Shown here piece after piece: positions 8,762 through 60,475 of a stretch of DNA of 64,000 bases. Numbering within the stretch: the first letter of the stretch is position 1; every line of letters starts with the position of its first letter. The translations under genes and the position numbers were made by a program. Under the pieces are notes generated by a model, which saw nothing but the letters and a program-made list of their open reading frames with translations, searched no databases and was not told the DNA's origin. Source of the stretch: Spirochaetia bacterium (GTDB taxonomy: Bacteria > Spirochaetota > Spirochaetia > WTKD01 > G963693115). The DNA lies in contig CBDAKK010000003.1 of assembly GCA_965196605.1 (NCBI GenBank), positions 80,821 to 144,820 on the forward strand, written 5' to 3'.

Positions 8762-9559
8762 ATGCGTTTGAAACACAAAGTAGCTATTGTAACGGGAGGG
8801 GCGCAAGGCATAGGGGCCGCCATTGTCCGTGCCTTTGTAGAAGAAGGCGCGCGTGTACTCATATGCGACATGCTCATTGAAAAGGCAGAAGAGACACGGC
8901 GTGAAATTATGGCGGCAGTCCCCTCCCATGCGCAGCTTGCATGCCACCAATGCGACATAACGCGCGTAAGCGAGGTAGAAGCCATGGTTGCCGCATGTGT
9001 AGAAGCACTGGGACAGCCTCAGGTGCTAGTAAACAACGCGGGGAGAAATTTTTTCAATGAGCCGCTTGAGACCACAGAGGACGAGTGGCGGCGCTGCATT
9101 GACAACGACTTAAGCGGCGCGTGGAACTGCGCGCGGGCAGTGCTGCCCCACATGGTGAAAAACAAGGACGGCTCAATTATAAACATGTGCTCCGTGCACG
9201 GGCATAAAATTATTCCTTCTTGTTTCCCCTACCCTGTTGCAAAACACGGACTCATTGGGCTCACAAAAGCCTTAGGCGTAGAGTACGCGCAGCACAATGT
9301 ACGCGTTAATTCCATTTCGCCCGGCTTAATAGAAACGCCCTTGGCGCTGCGCTGGTATGAGGAGTCAGTCGCGCAGGGGCTTGCAGAGGATGTGGAGAGT
9401 TTTCGCAAACAACAAGCCGAGGTGTTACCCTGCAAGCGCGTGGGTAGCCCGCGCGAAGTAGCAATGCTCACCGTGTTTCTCGCCTCAGACGAAGCACCCT
9501 TCATCAACGCCACCGACATAGTCATGGACGGAGGGCGCAGCGCGCTGTATCACGAGTGA
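8762..9559 (+). CDS. SDR-family oxidoreductase (short-chain dehydrogenase)
   Basis: 'VAIVTGGAQGIGAAI' glycine motif, NNAG, and a YxxxK-type active-site region. Length is 265 aa. Confidence 0.85.
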   Translation: MRLKHKVAIVTGGAQGIGAAIVRAFVEEGARVLICDMLIEKAEETRREIMAAVPSHAQLACHQCDITRVSEVEAMVAACVEALGQPQVLVNNAGRNFFNEPLETTEDEWRRCIDNDLSGAWNCARAVLPHMVKNKDGSIINMCSVHGHKIIPSCFPYPVAKHGLIGLTKALGVEYAQHNVRVNSISPGLIETPLALRWYEESVAQGLAEDVESFRKQQAEVLPCKRVGSPREVAMLTVFLASDEAPFINATDIVMDGGRSALYHE

Positions 9560-9704
9560 AGTTTAAAAGTAGCAAAATGGCTTACGTTTGATTCGTGGTT
9601 ATTTTTCATATTGCAGTTCCTTGTTCTCCCCCACTCCCTTGTCGATATTACTTATTTACTATTGTCGCTCAAGCAAAAATCACCAAAAGTGGTATTATAC
9701 AAAT

Positions 9705-10201: not shown

Positions 10202-10519
10202 TCATGCATACAACTCATCTTTGGTGAATAAAGTTTTGGCACATGCATCGATATGCCTCTTAAACGGCGGATAGGTAATGCGACTATAGTTTGCTATATC
10301 AACATTATAAGGCAACATACTTTCCAAAAAGCACGTATAGAGACGGTCTTTTTCTTGTTCTGTAATATCGCCATAAATAACCAAATCAATATCTGAATTA
10401 GGTCTATAATGACCAGTTGCTCGCGATCCAAATAAAGCAACAGAGCTAATATTGTTACAGTTGCTTTTGAGTGTTTTTCTTATGACGTCTAAATAAGAAA
10501 TTCTTAATCCATGATTCAT
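10202..10519 (-). CDS. Minimal nucleotidyltransferase (MNT) toxin/antitoxin component
   Basis: Pol-beta NTase motif 'LFGSRATGHYRPNSDIDLVIYGD'. Length is 105 aa. Its coding sequence overlaps the upstream HEPN-type gene. Confidence 0.8.
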   Translation of the reverse strand: MNHGLRISYLDVIRKTLKSNCNNISSVALFGSRATGHYRPNSDIDLVIYGDITEQEKDRLYTCFLESMLPYNVDIANYSRITYPPFKRHIDACAKTLFTKDELYA

Positions 10520-10941
10520 TATAAATTGCTCATTATTTTTGCCGATAGTGTCTCATATAACTCACTAAAGCACTTCATATATTGTTTTGATACGCGTTCA
10601 ATAACCTCGTTAAATTTTTTAAAATCATAGCTATGACTCATTTTATTTCTATCATCTAAAGCACTAAGCCAGTCCTCCCCATGGGTTATAAGATTAGCAG
10701 CATATGCTTCTTTAATAACAATGCTCGGTAAAATGCTGCTAAACACAAAGTTTTCATACTCCATATAATCCTTAATCGTTTTCCAAGAAAGCTCCATGCA
10801 AAATTCAAAACGCTGTATCATACCTTCCTTTGCAATTTGCTCTAACTCTTCCTTATTATATCTATCACAAATTTCTTGCAATAAAATATACGCTCTTTTA
10901 AAGTTATCAAATCTATACTGCCATCTTGGTTTATCACTCAT
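10519..10941 (-). CDS. HEPN / nucleotidyltransferase substrate-binding (HI0074-family) protein, partner of MNT
   Basis: 140 aa helical protein. It forms the canonical two-gene HEPN/MNT arrangement with translational coupling. Confidence 0.65.
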   Translation of the reverse strand: MSDKPRWQYRFDNFKRAYILLQEICDRYNKEELEQIAKEGMIQRFEFCMELSWKTIKDYMEYENFVFSSILPSIVIKEAYAANLITHGEDWLSALDDRNKMSHSYDFKKFNEVIERVSKQYMKCFSELYETLSAKIMSNL

Positions 10942-11004: not shown

Positions 11005-11108
11005 AGTTGCAATGCTCGCCGTGTTTCTCGCCTCGCGGACGAAGCGCCCTTCATCAACGCTACGGACATACTCATGAACGGAGGGCGCAGCGCGCTGTAT
11101 AACCAGTG
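11005..11108 (+). pseudogene. Diverged duplicate of the 3' end of the SDR gene (gene remnant)
   Basis: Nucleotides 11011-11108 are ~85% identical to 9455-9559 ('gcaatgctc.ccgtgtttctcgcctc...ggagggcgcagcgcgctgtat'). The frame is broken. Confidence 0.7.
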
Positions 11109-11256
11109 GTTTTTACGTTAATTTTTTCCGTCTATGATGGCTTGTACTTTATTGCTCACTCACACTTTATACAGTACTAGTAATATTTGAAAACCTCCAA
11201 AGTATATAATGTAATTGTTATCAAAAAACTAGCAACATCGATTTAGGAGTAGATTT

Positions 11257-20315: not shown

Positions 20316-21175
20316 GTTCCGTACTAGTGTGTGTAGATCTCGGGGGTAGTTTTCTTCGCATTGCCGCAGTTGACAGTCTGGGGAATATTCTTAAGGTAGA
20401 AAAAGAAGACATTCGGCCTTATAAAAAGGACGAAAGCCATCTTGAAGCTTTTATATATGAGGCTGTTCAAAGACACATTGCCCATGCACAAGGGCTTGTG
20501 CAAGCGGTGTGTTTTTCCGTGCCTTGGGTTGTCTCTAACACGCAGTCTTCCTCTTATGCCACAAATTTTTCTTCCACATTTTCGCTCAACGCCATTATCA
20601 ACAAAATACAAAATTACCAGTTGCCCGTGTTTCAGATAAACGACGTAAATGCAGCGACCTTGGGCGAGCAATGGAAGGGCTCTCTACAAGCCGTCCAAAA
20701 TGGAGTGTATCTCAATATTGGCACGGGTGTAAGCTTGGGCATTGTAATACAAGGCGCAGTCTACAGCGGCGCGCATGGCCTAGCGGGCGAAATTGCCTTT
20801 TGTATGAGCTCGGTACAAGAAATGCGCACAGCCACGGTAGGGCAAGCGTGTTTAGAAAAAATCATTGGAGGTGAGAGTCTGCAAAAACACATTGACACCC
20901 CACATCAGCACAGTGACTTGCGCGCAGCCTTTGAAACCTTGGCCATGCATATTATTAACGTGTCTTACATACTCAATCCAAGCATTCTTGTTTTAGGCGG
21001 GGGCGTAATACGCCACCACGCCACGCATGTCGAAGAACTAGCGGCAATGCTGAAGCAAAAAATGCCACGCGACATATGCCCGCGCCTAGTACAAAGCCGC
21101 GTGCCACACGTAGAACTCGTAGGGTGTGCACGACATGCCCTGCGCCATAAGACCACGACAAACTTGCAGGAGTGA
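20312..21175 (+). CDS. ROK-family sugar kinase (glucokinase/N-acetylglucosamine kinase-like)
   Basis: 'VLVCVDLGGSFLRIAAVD' ATPase phosphate-1 motif and 'AHGLAGEIAF'. Confidence 0.75.
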   Translation: MSSVLVCVDLGGSFLRIAAVDSLGNILKVEKEDIRPYKKDESHLEAFIYEAVQRHIAHAQGLVQAVCFSVPWVVSNTQSSSYATNFSSTFSLNAIINKIQNYQLPVFQINDVNAATLGEQWKGSLQAVQNGVYLNIGTGVSLGIVIQGAVYSGAHGLAGEIAFCMSSVQEMRTATVGQACLEKIIGGESLQKHIDTPHQHSDLRAAFETLAMHIINVSYILNPSILVLGGGVIRHHATHVEELAAMLKQKMPRDICPRLVQSRVPHVELVGCARHALRHKTTTNLQE

Positions 21176-21906
21176 AAACAGTTATGAAGGTAAACCTTAG
21201 GTATAAAATTACCAAAGACTATACTCAGTTAAGCGACTGTGCCTCGGATATACTGCTACAAGCCGCGCTCAATGAGAGAGAGGCTACCTTTGTGACAGCG
21301 GCGGGCAGTACCCCCAAGCGTACGTACGAAATGTTTTGTCAAAAATATAAGGCGGAAGGCCTAGCGCCAGATCGAATTCGCATTGTTCTCCTCGATGAGT
21401 GGTGTGGTTTGCCATTTGGGCACCCCTCGTCGTGTTATGCCTTTATAAAAGATACGCTTATAAAGCCCTTGAATATTCCACATGATAATTTCATATATTT
21501 CAACAGTGCCTGCAAAGACACCGAGGCCGAATGTGCACGAATGCAAAAAATTCTCGAGGGTTTGAAAATAAGCGTGTGTGTCTTGGGCACGGGATTAAAC
21601 GGGCACATTGGGTTCAACGAACCCTCAAGGGTGTTTTACGCCAATGTTCATTACACACACTTATCCGCAACCTCACTCGCGCATCCCATGGCACAAGGCA
21701 ATGCCCCGCTCATTACAGGCGGCATTACCCTCGGCATACGCAACATACTTGCGGCTGACACCGTGCTCATGCTTGCCAATGGCGTTAAAAAACGCAAGCA
21801 TATACAACTGCTGGTAAACACCAATACCATTTCGCCCCAGCACCCCCTTACATGCCTTAAGCTACACAAAAATGCCATATGCATTGTAGACCAAAGCTGT
21901 GCATAA
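21172..21906 (+). CDS. nagB: Glucosamine-6-phosphate deaminase/isomerase (NagB family)
   Basis: 'ATFVTAAGSTPKRTYEMF' and 'VCVLGTGLNGHIGFNEP' match NagB-family motifs. Length is 244 aa. Confidence 0.75.
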   Translation: MKTVMKVNLRYKITKDYTQLSDCASDILLQAALNEREATFVTAAGSTPKRTYEMFCQKYKAEGLAPDRIRIVLLDEWCGLPFGHPSSCYAFIKDTLIKPLNIPHDNFIYFNSACKDTEAECARMQKILEGLKISVCVLGTGLNGHIGFNEPSRVFYANVHYTHLSATSLAHPMAQGNAPLITGGITLGIRNILAADTVLMLANGVKKRKHIQLLVNTNTISPQHPLTCLKLHKNAICIVDQSCA

Positions 21907-21954
21907 GCGCTTTGTGGGGGCACGCCCCCACGCCCCCCTTGGGGTAAGACGCTA

Positions 21955-22430
21955 TTTTGCGCTTACGCGCGTGAGGCTGCACGCCGTGTGTGTTCTGCTT
22001 CGCAGTATGTATGCACGCGTGCGTGCTGCCATGGCGTGGGGCGCATTATGATAATGCCTCGGACGGCTGTACTTTCTTTCTTTTCTTTTTGTGCGACGCA
22101 AAAAGAAAAGAAAGAAGAGTACCAAAGAAAGAAAAGAAAAAACCGCTGTGGGGGATGCTCCCCAACACCCCCGAGCATTCAGTGAACATCTTTTGCGCTT
22201 ACGCGCGTGAGGCTACACGCTGTGTGTGTTCTGCTTCGCAGTATGTGTGCACGCTGCGTGCTGCCATGGCGTGGGGCGCATTATGATAATGCCTCGGACG
22301 GCTGTACTTTCTTTCTTTGGTGCGAGTACTCCATTTCTGCACCGTCCATGGCGCTCTTATTTGCCCCATCCATGGGGCGAGCGACCGCTGCGCTCCGCTA
22401 TCTGAATGTCAGCACCCGCTCGCTACGCTT
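21955..22430. repeat. Two tandem ~238 bp repeat units (intergenic repeat family R1) with an internal AAAGAAAAG palindrome
   Basis: 21955-22085 is near-identical to 22193-22317. The palindrome 'ctttctttcttttcttttt-gtgcgacgc-aaaaagaaaagaaagaaga' lies at 22076-22124. Confidence 0.8.
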
Positions 22431-22479
22431 GTGAGCGCGCTCACACAAACTTACTTCCATACGATCTTCATGCTTGCGC

Positions 22480-22800
22480 GCAGTATCTATGGCATTACTG
22501 CTTTAGCACACAGGATGTTTTTGCTATAAGCTCCATCTCTGTGTCGCGTTGCGACACTTATTTTAATCGTTTCTAGCCGCTCGCCTAACGGCTCCCGACT
22601 CTTTTTTTGGTTCTTTTTTTCTCTTTTTGATGCAAGCTCCATGTTTGCACCGCACAGCGGTGCTTATGCAATAGTTGGCATCCCCTCGCTACGCTCGTGA
22701 GCGTCCTCACAGCCGTGCCATGGATGGAGCGCATTGGCTGCCATGGAGGGTAAAAAAGAAAAGAAAGAACGGCCACCCGAATGGATAGCGTATTGAGAAT
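22480..22800. repeat. R1 repeat copy forming the left inverted flank of the DUF285 gene
   Basis: Its reverse complement matches 24945-25260 at ~80% (for example 'gcaagctccatgtttgcaccgcacagcggtgcttatgca' and the 'ccatggatgg...ccatggagggtaaaaaagaaaagaaagaacggcca' core). Confidence 0.75.
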
Positions 22801-23076
22801 AGCTGCTTGGCACGCACGTCCCACGGACGGGACGCATTGTGCGCCAAGGACGGTACAAGAAGCGTTCATACAAGACTGCGTAAGCAAAACTGCGATAGCT
22901 ACCCGCGCGTTAGCGCAGAACTCGCATGATACTCCGCAAGGGGGTGTGGGGGCAGCTCCCCCACAAAGGCAAGCTTGAGCCCCACAAGGGCAAAGTCTCA
23001 TCTAGGGGTTTACATTTCCTAATAATTTCATTATGCTTGCAAATATGAAACAAAACACTTTTTTTAGGAGGACTTT

Positions 23077-24729
23077 ATGAAAAATAATAGTCATAAACAC
23101 ACAAAAACACTTTGTGTAGCACACCTTGTAGTAGCTCTTGCCTTCATGGCTTTGACCCTTGGCGGTTGCGAGCAATTAGGCGATGATCTGGCCCAAAACA
23201 GCATGGGCATTAATAAACTCACCAGCGCTACAGGAGGTGCAGGGGCTTTGCGCGATACATGTACTGCTCAGCCTACGCAGCACCCAAGAAACAAGCAAGC
23301 ATTACAAGCACTGCTTAACAAAGCTATTACCCCAACGACTCCTAGCCCCAATCTCAACTACATTGACACATGGGCCATCACGGATATGAGTAATTTATTT
23401 AAAAACAAATCTACATTCAATGGTGATATACGCTGTTGGGACACCTCCAATGTCACGAATATGGAGAACATGTTTTGGGGGGCTATGAAATTCAACCAAG
23501 ACATTGGTAACTGGGACACCTCCAAGGTCACGAATATGAGCAACATGTTTAGGGACGCTAGAGCCTTCAACCAAGACATTGGTAACTGGGACACCTCCAA
23601 GGTCACGAATATGGAGAGCATGTTTCTTGGTGCTGAAGTTTTCAATCAAGACATTGGTAACTGGGACACCTCCAAGGTCACAGATATGAACCACATGTTT
23701 GCTGATGCTAAAGTTTTCAATCAAGACATTGGTAACTGGAAGACCTCCAAGGTCACGGATATGAGCTACATGTTTCAGGGGGCTACAGCCTTCAACCAAG
23801 ACCTGAGCCGCTGGAATGTAGATAATGTAACTAAGCAGGATCATGTTTTCAACAATGCGACAGAAATGAACAAAAACAAAAGCAAGTGGCCTAAAAAATT
23901 ACTGCGCAATATATGTACTGCCCAATATACTGAGAAGCCACAAAGCACGCAAGAATTACAAGTGCTTATTAACAAAGCTATTACTTCAACAACCCCTAGC
24001 CCCAATCTCAACTACATCGACACATCGGCTATCACCGACATGAGTCGTTTATTTAAAGACAAATATACATTCAATGGCGATATACGCTGCTGGGACACCT
24101 CCAATGTCACGAATATGACACACATGTTTTGGGGTGCTACAGCCTTCAACCAAGACATAGGTAGCTGGGACACCTCCAAGGTCGAGCATATGGGCCACAT
24201 GTTTAGGGAGGCTACAGCCTTCAACCAAGACATTGGTAGCTGGGACACCTCCAAGGTCGAGTATATGTGGGGCATGTTTGAGGGTGCTACAACCTTTAAT
24301 CAAGACATAGGTAGTTGGAAGACCTCCAAGGTCGAGTATATGCAGAGCATGTTTGATGGGGCTAGCGCCTTCAACCAAGACATTAACACGAATACTAAGA
24401 AGAAGACGTGGATCACGTCTGCAGTCACGGATATGCATAGCATGTTTTCTGCTGCTACAGCCTTCAACCAAGACATAGGTAACTGGGACACCTCCAAGGT
24501 CAAGAATATGAAATACATGTTTTCCTGGGCTACAGCCTTCAACCAAGACATTGGTAGGTGGGACACCTCCAAGGTCACGACTATGGAGGACATGTTTTGG
24601 GACGCTAGAGCCTTCAACCAAGACCTGAGCCGCTGGAAGGTAGGGAGTGTGACTAAGTGGAGTCGTATTTTCAAAAATGCGACAGAAATGAACAAAGACA
24701 AAAGCAAGTGGCCTGCAAAATTTAAGTAG
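23077..24729 (+). CDS. DUF285 (BspA-type/Mycoplasma-type) repeat lipoprotein, internally duplicated two-module surface protein
   Basis: Signal peptide with lipobox 'LTLGGC'. More than 14 units of '[16 protein letters not shown]'. Two homologous modules each begin '[31 protein letters not shown]'. RBS AGGAGG upstream. Confidence 0.85.
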
Positions 24730-24944
24730 TTCTGTAATGTAAGGTGAGCCTTTGTGGAGGCTAAGGTTATGTCTCTAATAAGGCATATACACCGATAGCT
24801 GTATTGTTGTTGTGGGGGGAGTGTCCCCCCACGCCCCCCTTGGGGTAAGACGCGCTATTGGCGCTATGCGCGAGCAGCGCGGTATCACTTGCAGTGGGCT
24901 AAGACTGATGCCTTTTGTTGCCACGGCGTCAGCGCACTATGCAA

Positions 24945-25260
24945 ACATTTCGGATGGCCGTTCTTTCTTTTCTTTTTTACCCTCCATGGCAGCCAATGCG
25001 CCCCATCCATGGGGCGGCTGTGATGACGCAAAAAGAGTCGAGAGCGTAGCGAACGGGTGCAAACTACTGCATAAGTGCCGCGATGCGGCACAAACATGGA
25101 ACTTGCACCAAAGAAAGTACCAAAGAAAAGAAAAAAACATCCTGTGTGCTAAAGCAGTAATGACATAGATACGCTGCGCAAGTATTAAACAGCACCAAAA
25201 CATGAGCGAAGGGATGCAAACTATTGCATATTGCCTTGTGGAGGGAGTGTCCCCCCACGC
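24945..25260. repeat. R1 repeat copy forming the right inverted flank of the DUF285 gene
   Basis: Inverted relative to 22480-22800. It contains the same ccatgg...aaagaaaagaaag core. Confidence 0.75.
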
Positions 25261-25502
25261 CCCCCACGGGGTAAGACGCGGTATTTGCATATGCAGTGCA
25301 GCGCGGTGTCACTTGCAGTGGGCTAAGACTGATGCCTTTTGTTGCCACGGCGTCAGCGCACTATTGTACCGTTGCAAGTGATTTGAGAAAAAGTTGCAGT
25401 TGAATTGAGAAAATACCGTGTTTTAGCGTGTCTATGTGTGTTTTAACGTGTCTTTACATGGGATTTAATGAGGATAGAGATGTGGTAGTAGAGTGTGTCT
25501 TG

Positions 25503-26327
25503 TCACTCCTCTTGGAACTGCATTAAGTCAACCAAGTCATACTGTTTTTCCAGTGTATAATTTGCGGTGAGCACCTCGGTTTTTTCCTTCTCTCGCGTAC
25601 CGGTTCCTATAGAGACCGTGAATTTCATGCGCTTTGTATCCCAGCGGTGTTTCTGTATGTACTCTTCCAGCACGGGTGAGGGGTAGGAGCTCAGAAGAAA
25701 CTTGCCCTCAATGGCACTAAGTGCTGTGAGGAGCGCAGTGTAGTCTTCTATGGTGTACCCGTCATAGTGACCACAGTCGCTGTTGTAGTATGGTGGGTCG
25801 CAATAGAAGAGGGTGTGAGGGCTGTCGTAGGTACGTATGATTTTAATGGCGTCTGTACACTCAAGTTGTACGTGTTGTAAACGCTGTGCGTAGTGGTAAG
25901 AGAATGTATCGCGTTTGCGTGCTATTTTGCGGGCAGTAGTGCCGCTCATGTCGTATCCGAAAGAGCCATCAAGCATGGAGCAGAACGATTCTTGAGACAA
26001 AACCCACACTGCCCACGCGCGCTCTAAGGGTGAGAAGCGGTGCGGGTTATTGTATGTAACAAGCGCGTCATGGTGTGCCATGCGGCTGTGGAGCGTGATT
26101 TGTATTTGTTTCTCAAGTGAGACAAAGTCCTGCTGTACGATGCGGTAGAAGTTCATAAGCTCACCGTTGGTATCATTGAGTGTCTCCATCTCTGAGGGTT
26201 TCTTTGCAAAGAAGATAGCGGCACCACCACAAAATGGCTCAACGTAGCATGTGTGTGGATGGAGGAGAGGGACGATTTCTTTGACGAGGTTTTGCTTGCC
26301 TCCGTAATAGCTCACTGGCGTCTTCAT
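25503..26327 (-). CDS. DNA adenine methyltransferase, Dam/D12-class (copy B, left arm)
   Basis: 'YYGGK', 'EPFCGGAAIFF' and the catalytic 'DPPY'. It is 98% identical to the 32746..33570 product. Confidence 0.85.
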   Translation of the reverse strand: MKTPVSYYGGKQNLVKEIVPLLHPHTCYVEPFCGGAAIFFAKKPSEMETLNDTNGELMNFYRIVQQDFVSLEKQIQITLHSRMAHHDALVTYNNPHRFSPLERAWAVWVLSQESFCSMLDGSFGYDMSGTTARKIARKRDTFSYHYAQRLQHVQLECTDAIKIIRTYDSPHTLFYCDPPYYNSDCGHYDGYTIEDYTALLTALSAIEGKFLLSSYPSPVLEEYIQKHRWDTKRMKFTVSIGTGTREKEKTEVLTANYTLEKQYDLVDLMQFQEE

Positions 26328-27184
26328 GCAGCCACCTCACATGGTTTGAGTGCATACTCTTGTGCGATGAGCTCTATATCGTAGTTTGCGGTGAGTACTT
26401 CGGTTTTTGATTTGGTATGACCTTGAGATGAATTAGCAATACGTCTCTTAGAACACTGTGTGTGCCAGCCGTATTCCGATATGAAACTCTGCAGAGTGTC
26501 CGAGGGATACGAACTTAAGAGAAACATTCCCTGTATAGCACTAAGGCTTGTTAGGAGTGCGTGAAAGTCATGCTCGGAGTATCCGCCGTAGTGTCCCATA
26601 TGTGCATTAAAGTATGGTGGGTCGCAATAGAAGAGCGTGTGTGGAGTATCATAGCGTTGTATGATAGTGAGCGCATCGTCCGAATCGAGTTGCACATGCT
26701 TGAGGCGTTGCGCGAGTGTGTGAACATCAAAGGCATCTCGTTTGCGCGCGAGTGCGTTACTTGTTGTGCTACGCACGGAGCGAGAGAAACTGAAGGCGCC
26801 GTGGAAGTCGTGTGCGAATGATTGATGCGCTAAGACCCACACAGCCCATGCGCGTTTTACGGGGCTAAAGAGGTGTGGGTTCTGATAGACAACACGTGCA
26901 TCGCTGTGAGCTCTGCGACTATGGGGTGTGCTAATAATAAGAGATGTAAGTTCTTGGTTCTGTGTTTGCACGACTGAAAAGAAGTTAGTAATTTCAGCGT
27001 TGGTGTCATTGAGTGTTTCAATGGGCGCGGGTTCTTTTGCGAAAAAGACGGCCGCGCCGCCACAAAATGGCTCGACATAGCATGTGTGAGGATGCAGTCG
27101 TGGCACGATGGTGCTGGTCATAGACTGCTTACCTCCATAATAGGTAAGTGGTGTTTTCATAAGAAGTTCAAATACTCGGTACAT
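26324..27184 (-). CDS. DNA adenine methyltransferase, Dam/D12-class (copy A, left arm)
   Basis: 'YYGGKQ', 'EPFCGGAAVFF' and 'FYCDPPYFNAH'. It is ~90% identical to the right-arm copy at 31889..32749. Confidence 0.85.
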   Translation of the reverse strand: MYRVFELLMKTPLTYYGGKQSMTSTIVPRLHPHTCYVEPFCGGAAVFFAKEPAPIETLNDTNAEITNFFSVVQTQNQELTSLIISTPHSRRAHSDARVVYQNPHLFSPVKRAWAVWVLAHQSFAHDFHGAFSFSRSVRSTTSNALARKRDAFDVHTLAQRLKHVQLDSDDALTIIQRYDTPHTLFYCDPPYFNAHMGHYGGYSEHDFHALLTSLSAIQGMFLLSSYPSDTLQSFISEYGWHTQCSKRRIANSSQGHTKSKTEVLTANYDIELIAQEYALKPCEVAA

Positions 27185-27334
27185 AGTAGCTTGCTACACA
27201 CCGATATAAAGATATGGTGGTAGCAGTGTTACCGTGTGTGGGGTTGTTTGTTAACACCACATAGGGGCTGTGAGTATTCTTTTACAATACTCGCCAGTGG
27301 GTGCTGGTACACCCGCAGGCTGCCACTTTTTTGT

Positions 27335-27742
27335 TTATGGTAGCGCGTCTTTTTTTGCTTTACTAAGTTTCTTTTGAGCGTCTACATATGCACGGTATTC
27401 GTGGTAGTGGCGGTAGTCAATATTGGTGGTATCCGTGATTTTGTTTATGCACACGCGTATGCCGCAGTTTATGTAGTAGGCTTCGTTTTTGCCTTTTTCG
27501 CGTGCCCAGTTTTGAATGGCAGCGTCAGTTTCTCCGTCAATACAGTCTTCCTGCTCTGCACGCGTGGCGGCGTCTACCCATGTGCCTGTGGTGGTATCGC
27601 CGACCCATGAGGGCTTGAGCATGGCCTGCGGCGGCGGTGTGGTGTGTGCTATGGTAAGACTTAAGTCTTTGGGTGGTGGGCTATCAAACTGCCCTATGAT
27701 GTGTCCATTTTTGTCTAGTTCGTAATATGTTTTTGTGCTCAT
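27335..27742 (-). CDS. Small phage protein in the tail-fibre-assembly-chaperone (P2 gpG) position, left arm
   Basis: 135 aa and 100% identical to 31331..31738. It sits downstream of the tail-fibre-like gene. The functional call is from position and size only. Confidence 0.4.
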   Translation of the reverse strand: MSTKTYYELDKNGHIIGQFDSPPPKDLSLTIAHTTPPPQAMLKPSWVGDTTTGTWVDAATRAEQEDCIDGETDAAIQNWAREKGKNEAYYINCGIRVCINKITDTTNIDYRHYHEYRAYVDAQKKLSKAKKDALP

Positions 27743-27755
27743 TTTTAGTGCTCCT

Positions 27756-28730
27756 TTATGCAGTGCGTTTCCAAATACGCACGGTGTAATTTACGGGTCT
27801 ATTTTCAGCTGCAGTGGTAACTACTGTAGATACGGAAAATCTATATCCTACTCTATCACTGTGTCTTCTAGATGAGCCATCTGACCAACCCCAGTCGTCT
27901 CCTTGATCTACAATGCTCATGTTTTGTTGCGAGCCATAACCCCATCCCAAATTTGTCTTAAATGCAAATGTAAAATCTCGAATAGCATCAGTCTGTTTTC
28001 CTGTTTGAAATTTTTTTGCGCCATAATAGTCGTTGTCCCTACCCTCGGCACGAAAGAAGCAATCTGCGTATTGACTACTGATGTTTTGCCATGTCATGGT
28101 GTTGCCCCAGAGTTGTTGTGGAGTAGGTTGGTTTGGAAACTGGGTGTAGATAAAGCCGATGGGAATGGCGGAATTTAGTACGTCTTTCTTTGCTTGCGTG
28201 ATGGCGTTTTGTGCTTCGGTTTTTGCTTTGGTGATTTCAGCCATAAGTTCACTTTTTAACTGCTGACGTAGTGAGGTAAGAGAATTCCATCCGTGCGCAG
28301 ATTCACGGGGTGTAAGGTCGATGGTATTGTTTTTCACTTGTGCGAGGACAACATCATTGGCTTGTTTGTCCGTAGACAAAACGACATGCACGGTAGTCTT
28401 ATCCCCGCGTGTTTTCCATGTTTGCTTTTGTTGAATATCGTGCGTTGTGGTAGTATCTACAACCGAGTGACGCAGTACCACGAGTCCGTCTTTTTTATCT
28501 ATTGTAGTCTTGGCGGTGAGCGCGAGCCGTTGTCCATTAGGGGCAACAGCATCTCCCGCACTAATGACAACCTTCCCCGCGCCATCCATGCTCACGGTTA
28601 GCCCCGAGAGTACACCCGTGCCTGTGATAGCGTGCGTACTCTCATGTAGCGCATCCTCGGTATTCTGCTGAAGTATATCGAAGTCGTTGGGGGTAGGTGT
28701 CATACCTTCGTAAAAATGATGTTTTTTCAT
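27756..28730 (-). CDS. Putative phage tail-fibre / receptor-binding protein (P2 gpH position), left arm
   Basis: 324 aa and 100% identical to 30343..31317. The Thr/Gly-rich N-terminal part and a C-terminal region ('IGFIYTQFPNQPTPQQLWGN...CFFRAEG') are reminiscent of tail-collar-type domains. Gene order J-I-H-G. Confidence 0.5.
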   Translation of the reverse strand: MKKHHFYEGMTPTPNDFDILQQNTEDALHESTHAITGTGVLSGLTVSMDGAGKVVISAGDAVAPNGQRLALTAKTTIDKKDGLVVLRHSVVDTTTTHDIQQKQTWKTRGDKTTVHVVLSTDKQANDVVLAQVKNNTIDLTPRESAHGWNSLTSLRQQLKSELMAEITKAKTEAQNAITQAKKDVLNSAIPIGFIYTQFPNQPTPQQLWGNTMTWQNISSQYADCFFRAEGRDNDYYGAKKFQTGKQTDAIRDFTFAFKTNLGWGYGSQQNMSIVDQGDDWGWSDGSSRRHSDRVGYRFSVSTVVTTAAENRPVNYTVRIWKRTA

Positions 28731-29338
28731 AAGTTTCTATCTCCTGTGTTTGTATGTGATTTTTTCGTGTTTTCATTAAAAATAACAAAGCCTACATCGG
28801 GTGGGGTGTTGGTCTCTAGGTAACTTGCTAACTCTGTACGTTTTTCTCTCGTACTGTTTTGTATAGAGAGATAGAGCCCCTCACCGTTCATGATGATGCC
28901 TGTTTTGATGGGTGTGCCGTATGGTGCATGTCCTACGGTGAACGCATCCTTAGGCATTTCTATGATGCGGTATCGGTCTTTAAAATTGCTGTTCATGAAT
29001 TCCGTGAGAGCCTTTCTGGTACCGAGGTACTTCATGGTACGCGATGCTAAGGCTAGACGTTCACGCATACTGGTCTCGCTTTCATTCCCAACTTCTGGAA
29101 GCGCTAATGCGTTCGCATGCATGTTCATGTAGTGTCTATTACCCAAAGAGGGGAAGAACCCGCGAAAGAGAGAACGCGTATCGTATATTAGGATACCGAG
29201 CAGTATGTGGAGTACTACATAAAGTTTTCCGAGTTTGGGGCGAGTTCTGTCTTTTTCAAACGAGTGTTGTGCAACTAAAAGCAAAGTGGCTCCGCTCTGC
29301 AACAGGCGATGTGCCACTACTTTACAAAGCAGAGTCAC
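28727..29338 (-). CDS. Phage tail protein I-like (P2 gpI position), left-arm diverged copy
   Basis: 203 aa. The C-terminal 30 aa are identical to the 29768..30346 product, and the remainder is ~60-75% identical. The 5' end abuts and overlaps the baseplate-J fragment. Confidence 0.45.
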   Translation of the reverse strand: MTLLCKVVAHRLLQSGATLLLVAQHSFEKDRTRPKLGKLYVVLHILLGILIYDTRSLFRGFFPSLGNRHYMNMHANALALPEVGNESETSMRERLALASRTMKYLGTRKALTEFMNSNFKDRYRIIEMPKDAFTVGHAPYGTPIKTGIIMNGEGLYLSIQNSTREKRTELASYLETNTPPDVGFVIFNENTKKSHTNTGDRNL

Positions 29339-29763
29339 AGGGCATAGATGGCGTTAGAGAAGCAAAAGTGTTTCGTGCGCCCAGTGGGTTTGGGTCAGTG
29401 CGCGTGGTGCTACGCGGTGCAAACAATACGCAAGTCGGTACTGATATAGTGACAAAGGTGCGTGCTCGACTCGATACAGTGGGGCTTATAGGGCGAAATA
29501 CGGTAGTCGATACCGTAGGATTCGCCCCTCTTACCGTCAGTTGTACCTATGCAGGTACACTTACGGAAACAGAAGCAAAAAAAAGAATAACCGACTATTT
29601 TTATTCGCTTGGCATTGGCACGCGCTATACCATGCAAGATTTATACAACTTGTTTGACGACCAAGATGCCATTCAGTTTACCACGCCAACGGCAAGCGAT
29701 AAGACGCTTGGCAATGATGGTGTATACAAACTTACAAGCGTGAGGGCAACCAAGAAGGTGTAG
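29320..29763 (+). pseudogene. Baseplate J-like protein, C-terminal fragment only (truncated at the inverted-duplication junction)
   Basis: 'VRVVLRGANNTQVGTDIVTKVRARLDTVGLIGRNTVVDTVGF' is baseplate-J C-terminal-like. The upstream part of the ORF (29044-29338) overlaps the antisense I' gene. No N-terminal J domain is present. Confidence 0.5.
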
Positions 29764-29767
29764 TGTA

Positions 29768-30346
29768 ATGGCGTTTGAAAAATTTGTAGAAAAACAGATA
29801 GAAAAAAGCTCGTATGAAGGAGACCGGAAGAAAATACAGCTCGGCCGGTTGTATTCGGTGATGCGAGTATTGTGTGCAGTTGTAGCAAGCGATACACGAG
29901 ATGTGTTTCGAGCATTTTTCCCCGCGTTGGGTACTCGCACTTTTATGGACAGACACGCTAAAGCATTAGCGTTACCACACATTAAAAACGAAAGTGACAA
30001 AAGTTTGAGAGACCGCCTTACTGTTGCAACGCATACGATGACCTATCTCGGTACGCGCCAAGCATTCACTCAGTTTATGGAGAGTAATTTTAAGAGTAGG
30101 TGCCGCGTCATTGAAATGCCGAAGAATGCGTTTACTGTAGGACACCTACCCTATGGCACGCCCATTGGCACTGGCATAATTATGGCTGGCGAAGGACTCT
30201 ATGTGTACGTGCAAAACATTACGGCAGAGGAACGCATTGAGCTTGAAAGTTACCTAGAGACCAACACCCCGCCCGATGTAGGCTTTGTTATTTTTAATGA
30301 AAACACGAAAAAATCACATACAAACACAGGAGATAGAAACTTATGA
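29768..30346 (+). CDS. Phage tail protein I-like (P2 gpI position), right arm
   Basis: 192 aa. It immediately follows the J fragment, overlaps the start of the downstream tail-fibre-like gene, and is paralogous to 28727..29338. Confidence 0.45.
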   Translation: MAFEKFVEKQIEKSSYEGDRKKIQLGRLYSVMRVLCAVVASDTRDVFRAFFPALGTRTFMDRHAKALALPHIKNESDKSLRDRLTVATHTMTYLGTRQAFTQFMESNFKSRCRVIEMPKNAFTVGHLPYGTPIGTGIIMAGEGLYVYVQNITAEERIELESYLETNTPPDVGFVIFNENTKKSHTNTGDRNL

Positions 30347-31317
30347 AAAAACATCATTTTTACGAAGGTATGACACCTACCCCCAACGACTTCGATATAC
30401 TTCAGCAGAATACCGAGGATGCGCTACATGAGAGTACGCACGCTATCACAGGCACGGGTGTACTCTCGGGGCTAACCGTGAGCATGGATGGCGCGGGGAA
30501 GGTTGTCATTAGTGCGGGAGATGCTGTTGCCCCTAATGGACAACGGCTCGCGCTCACCGCCAAGACTACAATAGATAAAAAAGACGGACTCGTGGTACTG
30601 CGTCACTCGGTTGTAGATACTACCACAACGCACGATATTCAACAAAAGCAAACATGGAAAACACGCGGGGATAAGACTACCGTGCATGTCGTTTTGTCTA
30701 CGGACAAACAAGCCAATGATGTTGTCCTCGCACAAGTGAAAAACAATACCATCGACCTTACACCCCGTGAATCTGCGCACGGATGGAATTCTCTTACCTC
30801 ACTACGTCAGCAGTTAAAAAGTGAACTTATGGCTGAAATCACCAAAGCAAAAACCGAAGCACAAAACGCCATCACGCAAGCAAAGAAAGACGTACTAAAT
30901 TCCGCCATTCCCATCGGCTTTATCTACACCCAGTTTCCAAACCAACCTACTCCACAACAACTCTGGGGCAACACCATGACATGGCAAAACATCAGTAGTC
31001 AATACGCAGATTGCTTCTTTCGTGCCGAGGGTAGGGACAACGACTATTATGGCGCAAAAAAATTTCAAACAGGAAAACAGACTGATGCTATTCGAGATTT
31101 TACATTTGCATTTAAGACAAATTTGGGATGGGGTTATGGCTCGCAACAAAACATGAGCATTGTAGATCAAGGAGACGACTGGGGTTGGTCAGATGGCTCA
31201 TCTAGAAGACACAGTGATAGAGTAGGATATAGATTTTCCGTATCTACAGTAGTTACCACTGCAGCTGAAAATAGACCCGTAAATTACACCGTGCGTATTT
31301 GGAAACGCACTGCATAA
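30343..31317 (+). CDS. Putative phage tail-fibre / receptor-binding protein (gpH position), right arm
   Basis: Identical 324 aa protein to 27756..28730. Even the embedded antisense ORFs are identical, so the two copies are identical at nucleotide level. Confidence 0.5.
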   Translation: MKKHHFYEGMTPTPNDFDILQQNTEDALHESTHAITGTGVLSGLTVSMDGAGKVVISAGDAVAPNGQRLALTAKTTIDKKDGLVVLRHSVVDTTTTHDIQQKQTWKTRGDKTTVHVVLSTDKQANDVVLAQVKNNTIDLTPRESAHGWNSLTSLRQQLKSELMAEITKAKTEAQNAITQAKKDVLNSAIPIGFIYTQFPNQPTPQQLWGNTMTWQNISSQYADCFFRAEGRDNDYYGAKKFQTGKQTDAIRDFTFAFKTNLGWGYGSQQNMSIVDQGDDWGWSDGSSRRHSDRVGYRFSVSTVVTTAAENRPVNYTVRIWKRTA

Positions 31318-31330
31318 AGGAGCACTAAAA

Positions 31331-31738
31331 ATGAGCACAAAAACATATTACGAACTAGACAAAAATGGACACATCATAGGGCAGTTTGATAGCCCACCAC
31401 CCAAAGACTTAAGTCTTACCATAGCACACACCACACCGCCGCCGCAGGCCATGCTCAAGCCCTCATGGGTCGGCGATACCACCACAGGCACATGGGTAGA
31501 CGCCGCCACGCGTGCAGAGCAGGAAGACTGTATTGACGGAGAAACTGACGCTGCCATTCAAAACTGGGCACGCGAAAAAGGCAAAAACGAAGCCTACTAC
31601 ATAAACTGCGGCATACGCGTGTGCATAAACAAAATCACGGATACCACCAATATTGACTACCGCCACTACCACGAATACCGTGCATATGTAGACGCTCAAA
31701 AGAAACTTAGTAAAGCAAAAAAAGACGCGCTACCATAA
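31331..31738 (+). CDS. Small protein in the tail-fibre-assembly (gpG) position, right arm
   Basis: Identical 135 aa protein to 27335..27742. Confidence 0.4.
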   Translation: MSTKTYYELDKNGHIIGQFDSPPPKDLSLTIAHTTPPPQAMLKPSWVGDTTTGTWVDAATRAEQEDCIDGETDAAIQNWAREKGKNEAYYINCGIRVCINKITDTTNIDYRHYHEYRAYVDAQKKLSKAKKDALP

Positions 31739-31888
31739 ACAAAAAAGTGGCAGCCTGCGGGTGTACCAGCACCCACTGGCGAGTATTGTAGAAGCATACT
31801 CACAGCCCCTATGTGGTGTTACAACACAACCCCACACACGGTAACACTGCTACCACCATACTGTTATATCGGTGTGAGGCAGGTTACT

Positions 31889-32749
31889 ATGTACGGAGTA
31901 TTTGAACTTTTTATGAAAACACCACTTACCTATTACGGAGGTAAACAGTCTATGACACGCACCATCGTGCCACGACTGCACCCTCACACGTGCTATGTCG
32001 AGCCCTTCTGTGGCGGCGCGGCCGTCTTTTTCGCAAAAGAACCCGCGCCCATTGAAACACTCAATGACACCAACGCTGAAATTACAAACTTCTTTTCAGT
32101 CGTGCAAACAAAAAAACAGGAACTTACATCTCTTGTTGTAAGCACATCTCATAGTCGCAGAGCTCACAGCGATGCTCGTGTTGTCTATCAGAACCCACAC
32201 CTCTTTAACCCCGTAAAACGCGCATGGGCTGTGTGGGTCTTAGCGCATCAATCATTCGCACACGACTTCCATGGTGCCTTCAGGTTCTCTCGCTCCGTGC
32301 GTAGCACAACAAGTAACGCACTCGCGCGCAAACGAGATACCTTCGATGTCCACACACTCGCACAACGCATCAAGTATGTGCAGTTAGAATGTGACGATGC
32401 ACTCACCATCATACAACGCTATGATACTCCGCACACGCTTTTCTACTGCGACCCACCATACTTTAATGCACATATGGGACACTACGGAGGATACACCGAA
32501 CAAGACTTTTACGCACTCCTGAAAAGTCTTAGTGCTATACAGGGAACATTTCTCTTAAGTTCGTATCCCTCGGACACTCTGCAGAGTTTCACCTCAAAAC
32601 ACGGATGGTACACACAGTGTTCTCGGAGACGTATTGTTAATTCGCCTCAAGGTCATACTAAATCAAAGACCGAAGTACTTACCGCAAACTACAATACAGA
32701 GTTCATCGCACAAGAGTATGCACTCAAACCATGTGAGGTGGCTGCATGA
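31889..32749 (+). CDS. DNA adenine methyltransferase, Dam/D12-class (copy A', right arm)
   Basis: Same motifs as 26324..27184 ('EPFCGGAAVFF', 'DPPYFNAH'). The start is chosen at 'MYGVFELFMKTPL', matching the left copy. Confidence 0.8.
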   Translation: MYGVFELFMKTPLTYYGGKQSMTRTIVPRLHPHTCYVEPFCGGAAVFFAKEPAPIETLNDTNAEITNFFSVVQTKKQELTSLVVSTSHSRRAHSDARVVYQNPHLFNPVKRAWAVWVLAHQSFAHDFHGAFRFSRSVRSTTSNALARKRDTFDVHTLAQRIKYVQLECDDALTIIQRYDTPHTLFYCDPPYFNAHMGHYGGYTEQDFYALLKSLSAIQGTFLLSSYPSDTLQSFTSKHGWYTQCSRRRIVNSPQGHTKSKTEVLTANYNTEFIAQEYALKPCEVAA

Positions 32750-33570
32750 AGACGCCAGTGAGCTATTACGGAGGTAAGCAAAATCTCGTCAAAGAAATCG
32801 TCCCACTCCTACACCCACACACCTGTTACGTAGAACCCTTCTGCGGCGGTGCCGCTATCTTCTTCGCAAAGAAACCTTCAGAAATGGAAACACTTAACGA
32901 CACAAACGGTGAGCTTATGAATTTCTACCGCATAGTACAGCAAGACTTTGTCTCACTCGAAAAACAAATACAAATCACGCTTCACAGCCGTATGGCACAC
33001 CACGATGCGCTTGTTACATACAACAACCCGCACCGCTTCTCGCCCCTTGAGCGTGCGTGGGCAGTGTGGGTTTTGTCTCAAGAATCGTTCTGCTCCATGC
33101 TTGATGGCTCTTTCGGATACGACATGAGCGGCACTACTGCCCGCAAAATAGCACGCAAACGCGATACATTCTCTTACCACTACGCACAGCGACTCCAGCA
33201 TGTACAGCTCGAATGTACAGACGCGATTAAAATCATACGCACCTACGACAGTCCTCATACTCTCTTTTACTGCGACCCACCGTATTACAACAGCGACTGT
33301 GGACACTATGACGGATACACCATAGAAGACTACACCGCACTCCTCAAGGCACTTAGTGTCATTGAGGGAAAATTCCTGTTAAGTTCTTATCCATCACCCG
33401 TGCTGGAAGAGTGCATACAGAAACACCGCTGGGATACAAAGCGCATGAAATTCACGGTTTCTATAGGAACTGGTACTCGGGACAAGGAAAAAACCGAGGC
33501 GCTTACCGCAAATTACACACTGGAAAAACAATACGATTTAGTCGATTTGATGCAGTTCCGAGAAGAGTGA
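32746..33570 (+). CDS. DNA adenine methyltransferase, Dam/D12-class (copy B', right arm)
   Basis: 274 aa. It differs from 25503..26327 by about 5 residues. Confidence 0.85.
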   Translation: MKTPVSYYGGKQNLVKEIVPLLHPHTCYVEPFCGGAAIFFAKKPSEMETLNDTNGELMNFYRIVQQDFVSLEKQIQITLHSRMAHHDALVTYNNPHRFSPLERAWAVWVLSQESFCSMLDGSFGYDMSGTTARKIARKRDTFSYHYAQRLQHVQLECTDAIKIIRTYDSPHTLFYCDPPYYNSDCGHYDGYTIEDYTALLKALSVIEGKFLLSSYPSPVLEECIQKHRWDTKRMKFTVSIGTGTRDKEKTEALTANYTLEKQYDLVDLMQFREE

Positions 33571-34018
33571 CAAAATACACTCTATTACCCCCCCATTAAA
33601 TCCCATCTAAAGACACGTTAAAACACATATAGACACTCTAAAATACGGTATTTTCTCAATTCAACTGCAACTTTTTCTCAAATCACTTGCCCCCTACAGC
33701 ACAAAGAGTTGTAGTATATAAAACTCATTTGTATATGCTACAACTCTAATTGCTTGGTTTATCTCATTTTTTTAGCGGAATTTATCTCGCGCGGGTATAC
33801 ATAATTTAACTCCTGTAAAATATTAATTTTTATGTATGTACAGTATAACATAATTACAAATTAATTAAATTAATATTTCATTTGTGAAATTTATGTGAGA
33901 ATAAATTATGAGACTGCCAGCATAGCTTCGCCAGCAATGATGACGCACAAATAACTTGCAGCCTGCAGGTTTGGGTGGCGTTGTCGTTTCTAGGCTGTAA
34001 AGCAACTCACTTCAGCGC

Positions 34019-36072: not shown

Positions 36073-37503
36073 TCATTGGCATTGCCCATGCGAGAGTGTA
36101 CGACCCTTTACACAATAGGTTTCCCTTATCCCAATACCACTCAGAAAGTCCCTGTCGTGGGATATCACCATCATCGCAGCGGGGTAATGAGAGAGAATCT
36201 GGCTCACATGCTGCTTCGTCTCAATGTCGAGGTTATTCGTAACCTCATCTAACAACAACAATTGCGGCGTAGAAGCTGCAATGAGCGCAAGAGACAAACG
36301 CGCCTTTTCTCCCCCCGAAAGCCTCCTCACCAATGCATCCAGCTCCTCATTGTTACGAAACAAAAAATTGTGTAAGTGCGCACGCATCTGTGCTTCGCTC
36401 CATGCAGGCACGCGCTCATGCAAGGACTCTATAACCGAACTCTCGAGATTTAAAAAGGCATAATGCTGATCAAGATACCCAATGGCGGCTGCCCTTGGCA
36501 TATGCCAGTCGCCCGTTGTAATGACCTCAGGACTATTCAGAATAGCCTTGAATATTGTAGACTTGCCACTGCCATTATCTCCGCTTATAGCAACTCGTGC
36601 TTGCGAAGAGACACAAATATTGATGTTCCTCACAAGCGAAGGCCTCGCTTCATAGCCCACCGCTCCCTCATTAATGGACAGCAGTGTAGCACCCCTTACA
36701 ACACCAGAGGGTAAGGAAAACCTTGGAGCACCAAGCTCCCCCAAGGGCATGTCAGACAAGGCTTGCAAAACACGCCGCTTTGTGTGGGCAATGGCTTTAT
36801 TGTTTTTATTCTGCGTCATTTGCCCCCGCCCCTGCGCCGCCTTTAAGGCAAGCGTATCTCCCGAGTACTTTTTCTCACCATACGCTTTTCTCTTCTTAGC
36901 CCTCCGTTGTTCTTTCATAAGCGCCTCATGCGTCTGCTTCTTCTCTTCCTTCAGACGCATCAGTTGCACTTCCATAGACTTCCTTTTGGCATGCCTCTCG
37001 TTCATATAATCAGCGTAGCGCCCAGAAAAGACATGCACCGCTCCATGCTCAATGTGCCATAAGGTGCTCGTTACGGTGTTCAAAAGCTCAGCATCATGCG
37101 AGGCAATAATTACAGTCCCATAATATGAGGCAAGCATTTTCATAATGCGCCTTCTATTCTTACCGTCCAAGTGATTAGTCGGTTCGTCTAACAATAAAAG
37201 CGCAGGCTCCATCATCAACTCATTGGTCAAAGCCGTAATAAAACGCTGCCCACCACTCACAGCATGAGAGGCTTCAATAACCTGTGGAACGTACCCACAA
37301 CGCACGTCACTTGGCAGTGTTATAGCACCATGCGCAGGCTCCAACTCCCCCCGCAGCGCCTTGAGCAAGACTGATTTTCCCGAGCCATTCCTACCAATAA
37401 CGCCAATGCGGCTGTGAGGAAAAACCCGAGTACTAAAGTTTTCAAAACACACCTTGTGGGAGAAGGCAAGGCACAGGTTCTGTATTACCATTGGTTTATG
37501 CAT
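36073..37503 (-). CDS. ABC-F family ATPase (two ABC domains joined by a charged linker, no TM domain)
   Basis: 'GRNGSGKS' and 'GDNGSGKST' Walker A motifs. Signatures 'VSGGQRFITAL' and 'LSGGEKARLSLA'. A K/R/E-rich inter-domain linker. Confidence 0.75.
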   Translation of the reverse strand: MHKPMVIQNLCLAFSHKVCFENFSTRVFPHSRIGVIGRNGSGKSVLLKALRGELEPAHGAITLPSDVRCGYVPQVIEASHAVSGGQRFITALTNELMMEPALLLLDEPTNHLDGKNRRRIMKMLASYYGTVIIASHDAELLNTVTSTLWHIEHGAVHVFSGRYADYMNERHAKRKSMEVQLMRLKEEKKQTHEALMKEQRRAKKRKAYGEKKYSGDTLALKAAQGRGQMTQNKNNKAIAHTKRRVLQALSDMPLGELGAPRFSLPSGVVRGATLLSINEGAVGYEARPSLVRNINICVSSQARVAISGDNGSGKSTIFKAILNSPEVITTGDWHMPRAAAIGYLDQHYAFLNLESSVIESLHERVPAWSEAQMRAHLHNFLFRNNEELDALVRRLSGGEKARLSLALIAASTPQLLLLDEVTNNLDIETKQHVSQILSHYPAAMMVISHDRDFLSGIGIRETYCVKGRTLSHGQCQ

Positions 37504-40526: not shown

Positions 40527-40565
40527 ACCACACCCTACAGGAGACACACCCTCACGCTGGCACAA

Positions 40566-40716
40566 GGGAAGTGTTCCCTCTAGAGCAGGGGAAGTGTTCC
40601 CTTAGGGCTGAGGGAGGTGTTCCCTCTAGGGCTGAGGGAGTGCCTAGCCTCAGGCTGGCTAGTGCGTAGCCTAGTGCGGGCTGAGCGCTTTGTGGGGGCG
40701 CGCTGCCCCACAAAGA
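40566..40716. terminator. Convergent-gene terminator region: three 23-bp direct repeats plus the GTGGGGG/CCCCCAC palindrome
   Basis: 'gggaagtgttccctctagagcag / gggaagtgttcccttagggctga / gggaggtgttccctctagggctga', then 'ctttgtgggggcgcgctgccccacaaag' (10 bp stem). Confidence 0.5.
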
Positions 40717-42964: not shown

Positions 42965-43129
42965 GAGAGACACCTCCTCTGATGCTATTCTTAAGGTTAC
43001 TTGTATTAATAAAATAGTAATAATTAAATTAATATCAAGTGCATTTATGTTATTTTTGGCTTTTTATGCAGGGGGCAAATTTGCCTTTGTGGAGGGCGGC
43101 AACGCTTAGTTACAGCAGTTGCTCGCTGT

Positions 43130-44285: not shown

Positions 44286-44295
44286 TGAGGGTGCT

Positions 44296-44523: not shown

Positions 44524-44595
44524 ACAAGACGTTCATCTAACACAGGGAGTTGTGGCGACACTCCCCACACACAAAGAGCAATAGCCCCCTTAGTG

Positions 44596-60471: not shown

Positions 60472-60475
60472 GGCC

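Follow-up and report, generated by a model that had tools for sequence, protein, structure and literature searches.

A stretch of 64,000 nt from a Spirochaetia bacterium (contig CBDAKK010000003.1; this whole stretch is called the window below) carries a gene for a 550-aa lipoprotein made of DUF285/PARCEL repeats, which lies between two inverted copies of an intergenic repeat that we call U. A paralogous lipoprotein gene elsewhere in the window is accompanied by further members of the same repeat family. The arrangement has the appearance of a gene block that was duplicated long ago at a site liable to rearrangement, and not of an active on/off switch of a surface protein. U itself is a non-coding, lineage-specific and hairpin-rich repeat family that appears to be undescribed; nine copies or fragments of 60–530 nt are present in the window, every one of them within ~1.2 kb of a DUF285 gene (Table 1).

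The U units are ~240–530 nt long and consist, in this order, of a G-rich hairpin termed the G-box, a segment of ~130 nt (Ta/Tb), a polypyrimidine tract (polyPy), a CCATGG interior, a polypurine tract (polyPu) and a tail. The interior forms hairpins (CCATGG…CCATCCATGGGGCG) and the polypurine tract pairs with the polypyrimidine tract; in U1 the two tracts make a perfect hairpin (22072–22118) that folds far more stably than its shuffles (z = -5.4). We aligned six sequences: the two tandem units upstream of the 550-aa gene, both inverted arms around it, the truncated unit at 25232–25373 and the copy at 46 kb. Pairwise identities are 87 per cent for U4/U5, 75 per cent for U3/U4, 69–72 per cent for U1/U2 and U2/U6, and 53–64 per cent between subfamilies. 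The tandem units and the inverted arms share only 55–62 per cent identity; nevertheless, the single architecture that runs through the six-way alignment makes it defensible to treat them as one family, as the first-pass annotation of this DNA had done. A profile built without the G-box recovers the six training copies and U9 only, all of them beside the two DUF285 genes; in U9, which holds a Ta/Tb-like stretch, the match is at 44430–44564 (nhmmer E = 5e-5 and 2e-3).

The same annotation gave coordinates that were essentially right, and some of its details had to be amended. The tandem units upstream of the gene exist and belong to the family, but their period is 235–236 nt and not 238 nt (21955–22190 and 22191–22430, with the first 129 nt 97 per cent identical; the Ta/Tb segment of U2 is likewise 97 per cent identical to that of U1). 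The copy near the paralog is also present: 46099–46268 on the minus strand is 83 per cent identical to 22217–22386 in the second tandem unit, with which it has the CCATGG-rich interior in common, but it lies 370–540 nt upstream of the paralog start, that is 0.4–0.5 kb away and not 1 kb. The G-rich hairpin at the start of each unit, the tandem arrangement on the right side of the gene and the bracket around the paralog were missing from the earlier description. A coding origin of the units was considered and rejected, as their indels are not multiples of three and the open reading frames (ORFs) of the two arms are in different frames, the longer one having no Pfam match. An assembly artefact was rejected as well: the copies differ by 8–45 per cent and are therefore distinct sequences.

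Table 1. Positions of the DUF285 genes, U units, solitary G-boxes and promoter-like site in the window
Feature	Position	Strand	Remarks
U1	21908–22146	+	begins 2 nt past the nagB-like stop; G-box 21913–21938; Ta/Tb segment
U2	22144–22466	+	second tandem unit; degenerate G-box 22147–22172; nhmmer E = 1.6e-51
U3, left inverted-repeat arm	22446–22978	-	antisense to the gene; G-box 22940–22965, gene-proximal
Promoter-like site TTTACA-17-TATGCT	23009–23037	+	within the shared leader; AGGAGG ribosome-binding site downstream
DUF285/PARCEL repeat lipoprotein gene, 550 aa	23077–24729	+	lipobox LTLGGC; two-module internal duplication
U4, right inverted-repeat arm	24806–25235	+	sense; G-box 24811–24838, polyPy 24955–24978, interior hairpins, polyPu 25108–25136, tail
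U5	25232–25373	+	truncated tandem copy of U4; 25236–25364 versus 24810–24940, 92%
Solitary G-box-like palindrome	40688–40714	+	between two convergent genes
U9	44430–44581	-	degenerate, sense; 15 nt downstream of the paralog stop; degenerate G-box 44546–44578
DUF285/PARCEL lipoprotein paralog, 377 aa	44596–45729	-	lipobox TFGGC; start at 45729
U7	45811–45880	+	partial: G-box and start of Ta; antisense to the paralog; same position as U3
U8	45919–45980	+	partial: G-box and start of Ta; antisense to the paralog; same position as U3
U6	46060–46325	-	sense, upstream of the paralog; collinear with U2, 83% identity over 172 nt
Solitary G-box	63218–63250	-	between a KID-repeat gene and groES (start 63377)

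The inverted repeat around the 550-aa gene is real and far beyond chance. BLAST aligned 22602–22781 with 25137–24949 at 81 per cent identity (E = 2e-35) and, under sensitive settings, 22602–22795 with 25136–24935 at 79 per cent (E = 2e-44). A second match joins 22467–22522 to 25188–25133 at 89–94 per cent, the higher value being that of 22473–22522 against 25182–25133. Global alignment with MAFFT stretches both arms to the G-box at their gene-proximal ends and gives 75.5 per cent identity over 376 aligned bases, with nine indels that account for 146 gap columns; U3 contains an 83-nt insert, including a hairpin at 22541–22557, that is not in U4. The longest exact stretches common to the two arms are 47 and 30 nt, and the sole short inverted pair around the gene is the generic G-box, 78 per cent identical. 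The bracketing inverted copies reported by the first pass are thus borne out, and the core that it quoted, 'ccatggatgg...ccatggagggtaaaaaagaaaagaaagaacggcca', is indeed found in both arms.

Both bracketed genes are clear members of the DUF285 family. The Pfam model matches the 550-aa protein in five stretches (E = 5e-167) and the paralog with E = 6e-94, and the NCBIfam PARCEL repeat TIGR02167 is found in nine and six stretches, respectively. Tandem repeats of ~25 aa are present in both proteins, with a period of 75 nt in the DNA; the lipobox cysteines were assigned by eye against the rule [LVI][ASTVI][GAS]C. The two-module structure proposed earlier for the larger gene is confirmed by an 83 per cent match between 23249–23548 and 23903–24202, at an offset of 654 nt, and the paralog has 55–58 per cent amino-acid identity with each module. 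The conserved leader of the two genes, also noted before, extends over 191 nt at 72 per cent identity (23009–23199 versus 45795–45607), and the adjoining coding sequences are 69–75 per cent identical. A T6–T7 run in the 5' untranslated region (UTR) is the sole candidate contingency tract. On the minus strand, the DUF285 repeats contain antisense ORFs of 149 and 190 aa (23395–23844 and 24049–24621), which are probably not genes and which agree with the dyad symmetry of PARCEL sequences (PMC2996958).

The order of elements is the same at the two DUF285 loci: a U unit in sense, a U unit in antisense, the leader, the gene, and again a U unit in sense. Around the paralog the bracket has decayed to fragments. 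The identical order implies that the bracket is older than the duplication that gave rise to the paralog and that gene and flanks were duplicated in one piece. The gene together with its flanks has been copied at least once, in agreement with the picture of PARCEL genes as mobile accessory genes (PMC2996958, PMC2824730). The first-pass statement that the repeat family adjoins both paralogs holds within the window; however, since the paralogous loci are collinear, they provide about one independent observation of a link between U and DUF285 genes, and not two.

The G-box at the 5' end of each U unit follows the pattern (CTTT)GTGGGGG-N4-5-CCCCCAC-R-CCCCC. A search of the window with this pattern returned nine matches where 0.01 would be expected; among them are two pairs whose members overlap, each pair on a single copy. 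Altogether there are seven strong and ~4 degenerate G-boxes, all intergenic and distributed over six intergenic regions. Four follow stop codons, at 7 nt after the nagB-like gene, 82 nt after the 550-aa DUF285 gene, ~18 nt after its paralog and 7 nt after a gene with NHL repeats. Four of six G-box segments fold more stably than shuffles, with z of about -2.2 to -2.9, the other values being -1.0 in U3 (22925–22985) and -0.7 in U7 (45800–45860). At 40565–40714, a 23-nt hairpin repeat (AGGGAAGTGTTCCCT core) occurs three times in tandem ahead of a perfect G-box-like palindrome, CTTTGTGGGG…CCCCACAAAG; these hairpins probably constitute a bidirectional transcript-end structure. A scan of metagenomes with the motif CTTTGTGGGGG-N3-6-CCCCCAC-N-CCCCC yielded 58 loci in ~30 unrelated lineages with a GC content of 30–75 per cent, many of them at contig ends. 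As the similarity is confined to the hairpin, these are convergent or chance hairpins and not relatives of U. Several of the metagenomic G-boxes, on low-GC contigs, stand directly 3' of sequences that resemble tRNA 3' ends by appearance.

The 20-nt U core CTCCATGGCAGCCAATGCGC has six single matches in the GTDB representative genomes, in unrelated phyla and with no similarity beyond the seed. Neither the G-box nor the U core matched any viral contig, and a plasmid search in distant mode with the upstream repeat region (21907–23076) gave no match. The homology search with DUF285 was dominated by long multi-repeat proteins of at most 57 per cent identity and returned no orthologues. In a collection of 5.8 billion proteins, the nagB-like protein (21172–21906) and an ABC-F protein (36073–37503) encoded in the window each had one match of 100 per cent, both on the same 209-kb contig. 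The next homologues, from mixed phyla, are only 41 and 55 per cent identical, respectively, which indicates that the organism belongs to a very poorly sampled lineage.

The surroundings of the two loci are evidently prone to rearrangement. Upstream of the 550-aa gene is a sugar-catabolism operon, the last gene of which is nagB-like, with its stop at 21906; downstream is a phage-tail remnant. The latter is part of a giant inverted duplication at 25374–33690, composed of two arms of ~3.8 kb (25374–29183 and 29890–33690) that are 92–95 per cent complementary and 706 nt apart; its beginning coincides with the end of U5, which it truncates. Each arm carries two genes for D12-class adenine methyltransferases and ORFs of 135, 324 and ~200 aa, and a Baseplate_J fragment occupies the centre (29044–29763). 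The region looks like a phage or contractile-tail remnant after palindromic duplication; its 324-aa tail-like protein had no match when searched against phages. Between the NHL-repeat gene and the paralog (43012–44463) we found a tandem array of a 151-nt sequence (43170–43756, 3.9 copies, 98 per cent identity), related 107-nt repeats (43945–44179) and a duplicate, at 44306–44463, of a 158-nt piece of the 5' coding region of the NHL gene (42636–42793), with 97 per cent identity. Farther from the DUF285 genes, the last 93 nt of a short-chain dehydrogenase gene (9473–9565) are repeated at 11023–11115 with 82 per cent identity, and the two copies bracket an insert of 34 per cent GC that contains a HEPN-type NTase_sub_bind gene (10519–10941). 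The segment 9473–11115 has the appearance of an islet whose integration duplicated the end of its target. A gene for a GmrSD-type restriction endonuclease (56859–58508) lies in an island of 31–32 per cent GC in a window of 47 per cent GC.

We favour, at roughly even chances, an explanation in which an accessory PARCEL/DUF285 gene was embedded in a local cluster of U units. Tandem and inverted duplication on the spot would have raised the number of units, and the entire block, from the upstream sense and antisense units through the leader and the gene to the downstream sense unit, would later have been copied once as a segment, giving the second locus. The inverted pair U3/U4 would then be an old structural relic and not a programmed switch. 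The present-day role of the U units is most likely passive: their stable hairpins probably act as transcript-end or insulator structures, by which the lipoprotein gene would be run from its own promoter and not by read-through from the sugar operon, and they probably also render the site fragile, with illegitimate or homeologous rearrangement from time to time. The fragile-site part of the proposal is supported by the 3.8-kb inverted duplication truncating U5, the 151-nt arrays and the duplicated gene fragment beside the paralog. PARCEL/DUF285 genes are known as horizontally and intragenomically mobile accessory genes, and in mycoplasmas they occupy the most variable and rearranged regions of the genome (PMC2996958, PMC2824730).

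Several observations weigh against this explanation. No T-runs follow the G-boxes and a scan for intrinsic terminators, a function for which we considered and rejected them, gave counts no higher than in shuffles; moreover, two G-boxes (45813 and 45921) are located between divergent genes, away from any gene end. The best-conserved stretch of the units falls at a homologous position in the two pairs, with 47 nt exact between U3 and U4 and 56 nt exact between U2 and U6, and these blocks cover the pyrimidine tract and the first CCATGG. A 47-nt exact run was reached in 4 of 20000 shuffles of the match vector. The 83 per cent identity of U2 and U6 exceeds the 69–75 per cent of the adjoining coding sequence. 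Finally, the interior hairpins keep their pairing through five both-sided changes: one hairpin is paired in all four copies through three adjacent changes, and another stays paired between U3 and U4 despite two. Of all cells in the structure that we propose, 91.6 per cent are paired, compared with 25–46 per cent when the partners are slid, and six pairs have changed on both sides. Together, the exact blocks, the similarity of U2 and U6 and the compensatory pairing suggest constraint or later homogenisation, neither of which is predicted by a purely passive relic.

Alternatively, the U units could be the ends of a non-autonomous composite bounded by miniature inverted-repeat transposable elements (MITEs), which would have carried the DUF285 gene along as one cassette by means of a transposase or recombinase encoded elsewhere. 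The idea draws on the inverted bracket present at both paralogs, on U2 and U6, the conservation of which exceeds that of the genes beside them, on the long exact blocks at one and the same position in the units, and on hairpins preserved through compensatory changes; it also agrees with the stepwise GC content (51–59 per cent in the U units, 40–45 per cent in the genes and 22–36 per cent in the leaders) and with the horizontal and intragenomic mobility of PARCEL genes (PMC2996958). However, the U copies have no terminal inverted repeats and no sharp termini: their 3' ends differ, and the only inverted repeat is the internal polyPy/polyPu pair. The units abut each other or a stop codon, and no short direct repeats that could be target-site duplications were found at the outer edges of U3 and U4. 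The units stand head to tail and vary in length, all nine copies in the 64 kb are at the two paralogous loci, and Pfam or NCBIfam scans of the ~58 window ORFs of at least 120 aa detected no transposase, integrase, invertase or recombinase, as the first pass had already stated for transposases and invertases. The six scattered GTDB matches of the core and the empty viral and plasmid searches point the same way. The term 'MITE-like' used in the first pass is consequently not retained, and mobilisation in trans seems to us unlikely. A bolder version would make U a new structured non-autonomous element, two inverted copies of which capture and move the lipoprotein gene as a cassette, the conserved core (polypyrimidine tract and CCATGG hairpin) being the recognition site of a recombinase or transposase encoded elsewhere. 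We regard it as quite improbable; if it were true, the two DUF285 loci would represent two insertions, and the surface protein would gain diversity through exchange from one locus to the other.

The first-pass annotation had rather envisaged recombination between the repeats, with exchange between U3 and U4 inverting the gene, or exchange between direct units deleting it, and phase or antigenic variation as the outcome. RecA-dependent exchange in Escherichia coli requires a minimum of roughly 25 nt, a length attained by the exact stretches of 47 and 30 nt in these genuinely inverted arms, and the heterogeneous identity along the arms could reflect patches of gene conversion. Yet the only promoter-like site (a consensus match, of a kind as frequent in this region as in shuffles) and the conserved leader are both inside the bracketed segment, so that inversion would carry the predicted promoter along with the gene, still coupled to it, and would not turn the gene off. 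An arm identity of 75–80 per cent, with 146 gap columns and exact runs of at most 47 nt, and the presence of a mutL gene in the window (60458–62335) make frequent homologous exchange unlikely too, and the direct pairs able to delete the gene (U1/U2 with U4) are only ~59 per cent identical. Apart from the generic G-box there are no short, sharply defined sites for recombination, and the decayed bracket of the paralog argues against selection for an intact inverted repeat. Exchange at the 47- or 30-nt blocks would be rare at most and nothing indicates a programmed switch, which we hold to be very improbable; the authors of the Mycoplasma agalactiae study thought it unlikely that the drp family is phase-variable (PMC2996958, PMC2824730). 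A further possibility is that U is transcribed and provides small RNAs or UTR structures that control the DUF285 genes. In its favour are the folds of the U4 and U3 cores, more stable than those of shuffled sequences (z = -3.6 and -2.6, respectively), the high proportion of paired cells with both-sided changes, and a strongly conserved block at the same position in both subfamilies. Against it, neither an Rfam family (with gathering thresholds, and again with E relaxed to 1) nor a tRNA was matched, which led us to reject a known RNA family. The units share no conserved promoter or terminator; a sigma-54 promoter in the conserved core was discarded because the motif is correctly spaced in U6 only. 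Moreover, the covariation is effectively one contrast, since it comes from only four sequences in two subfamilies, and quasi-palindromes can self-correct by template switching without selection. A regulatory RNA is, in our estimation, distinctly unlikely.

As found, U and its surroundings add to what is known an intergenic repeat family that is lineage-specific, and a hotspot of rearrangement; they leave the understanding of antigenic variation unchanged. If the units were shown to move or recombine, they would constitute a new means by which PARCEL/DUF285 surface proteins are shuffled beyond the mycoplasmas, in a lineage that has been little sampled. The family is in any case of practical use for annotation and assembly, since repeats of this sort interrupt assemblies and give rise to spurious ORFs of 40–138 aa.

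A surface-protein gene between inverted repeats recalls fimS, Hin/Gin/Cin, the invertons of Bacteroides and the mycoplasma vpma/vsa systems. Those switches, however, have near-perfect repeats of ~10–35 bp, a dedicated recombinase (serine or tyrosine) that is usually adjacent, and an inversion that turns a promoter or swaps coding ends; here the arms measure ~400–530 nt with 75–80 per cent identity and nine indels, the ~58 window ORFs include no recombinase, and the predicted promoter travels with its gene. MITE-bounded composites such as integron mobilisation units likewise have a passenger gene between inverted copies of a non-autonomous repeat, but with defined terminal repeats, target duplications and near-identical flanks, none of which was seen here. 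The lipoproteins themselves have their closest counterparts in the Mycoplasma mycoides cluster and in the drp genes of M. agalactiae, with which they share the repeat family, the lipoprotein signal, the diverged paralogs, the location in variable and rearranged regions and the dyad-symmetric coding repeats with long antisense ORFs (PMC2996958, PMC2824730). The mycoplasma genes are tied to integrative and conjugative elements, insertion sequences and homopolymer or dinucleotide contingency tracts, whereas those described here are tied to the non-coding U units. Like the enterobacterial repetitive intergenic consensus (ERIC, or intergenic repeat unit, IRU), the pneumococcal BOX and RUP (repeat unit of pneumococcus) elements and the Correia elements of Neisseria, U is non-coding, at most a few hundred nucleotides long, modular, hairpin-forming, lineage-specific and located beside surface or accessory genes; it differs from them by its variable length, its tandem arrangement, its restriction, within the window, to a pair of paralogous loci, and the absence of terminal inverted repeats and target duplications. 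The G-box, a short GC-rich imperfect palindrome repeated between genes, often just past stop codons, in either orientation and clustered, resembles the repetitive extragenic palindromes (REP), bacterial interspersed mosaic elements (BIME) and REP doublets (REPINs) of proteobacteria. In U, however, it is only the head of a unit of 240–530 nt, without the doublet geometry of REPINs and with no REP-associated tyrosine transposase (RAYT; IS200/IS605-like) in the 64 kb. With these differences, U belongs to a known kind of sequence, the REP/BIME-, BOX- or ERIC-like intergenic repeats that are found beside variable surface genes.

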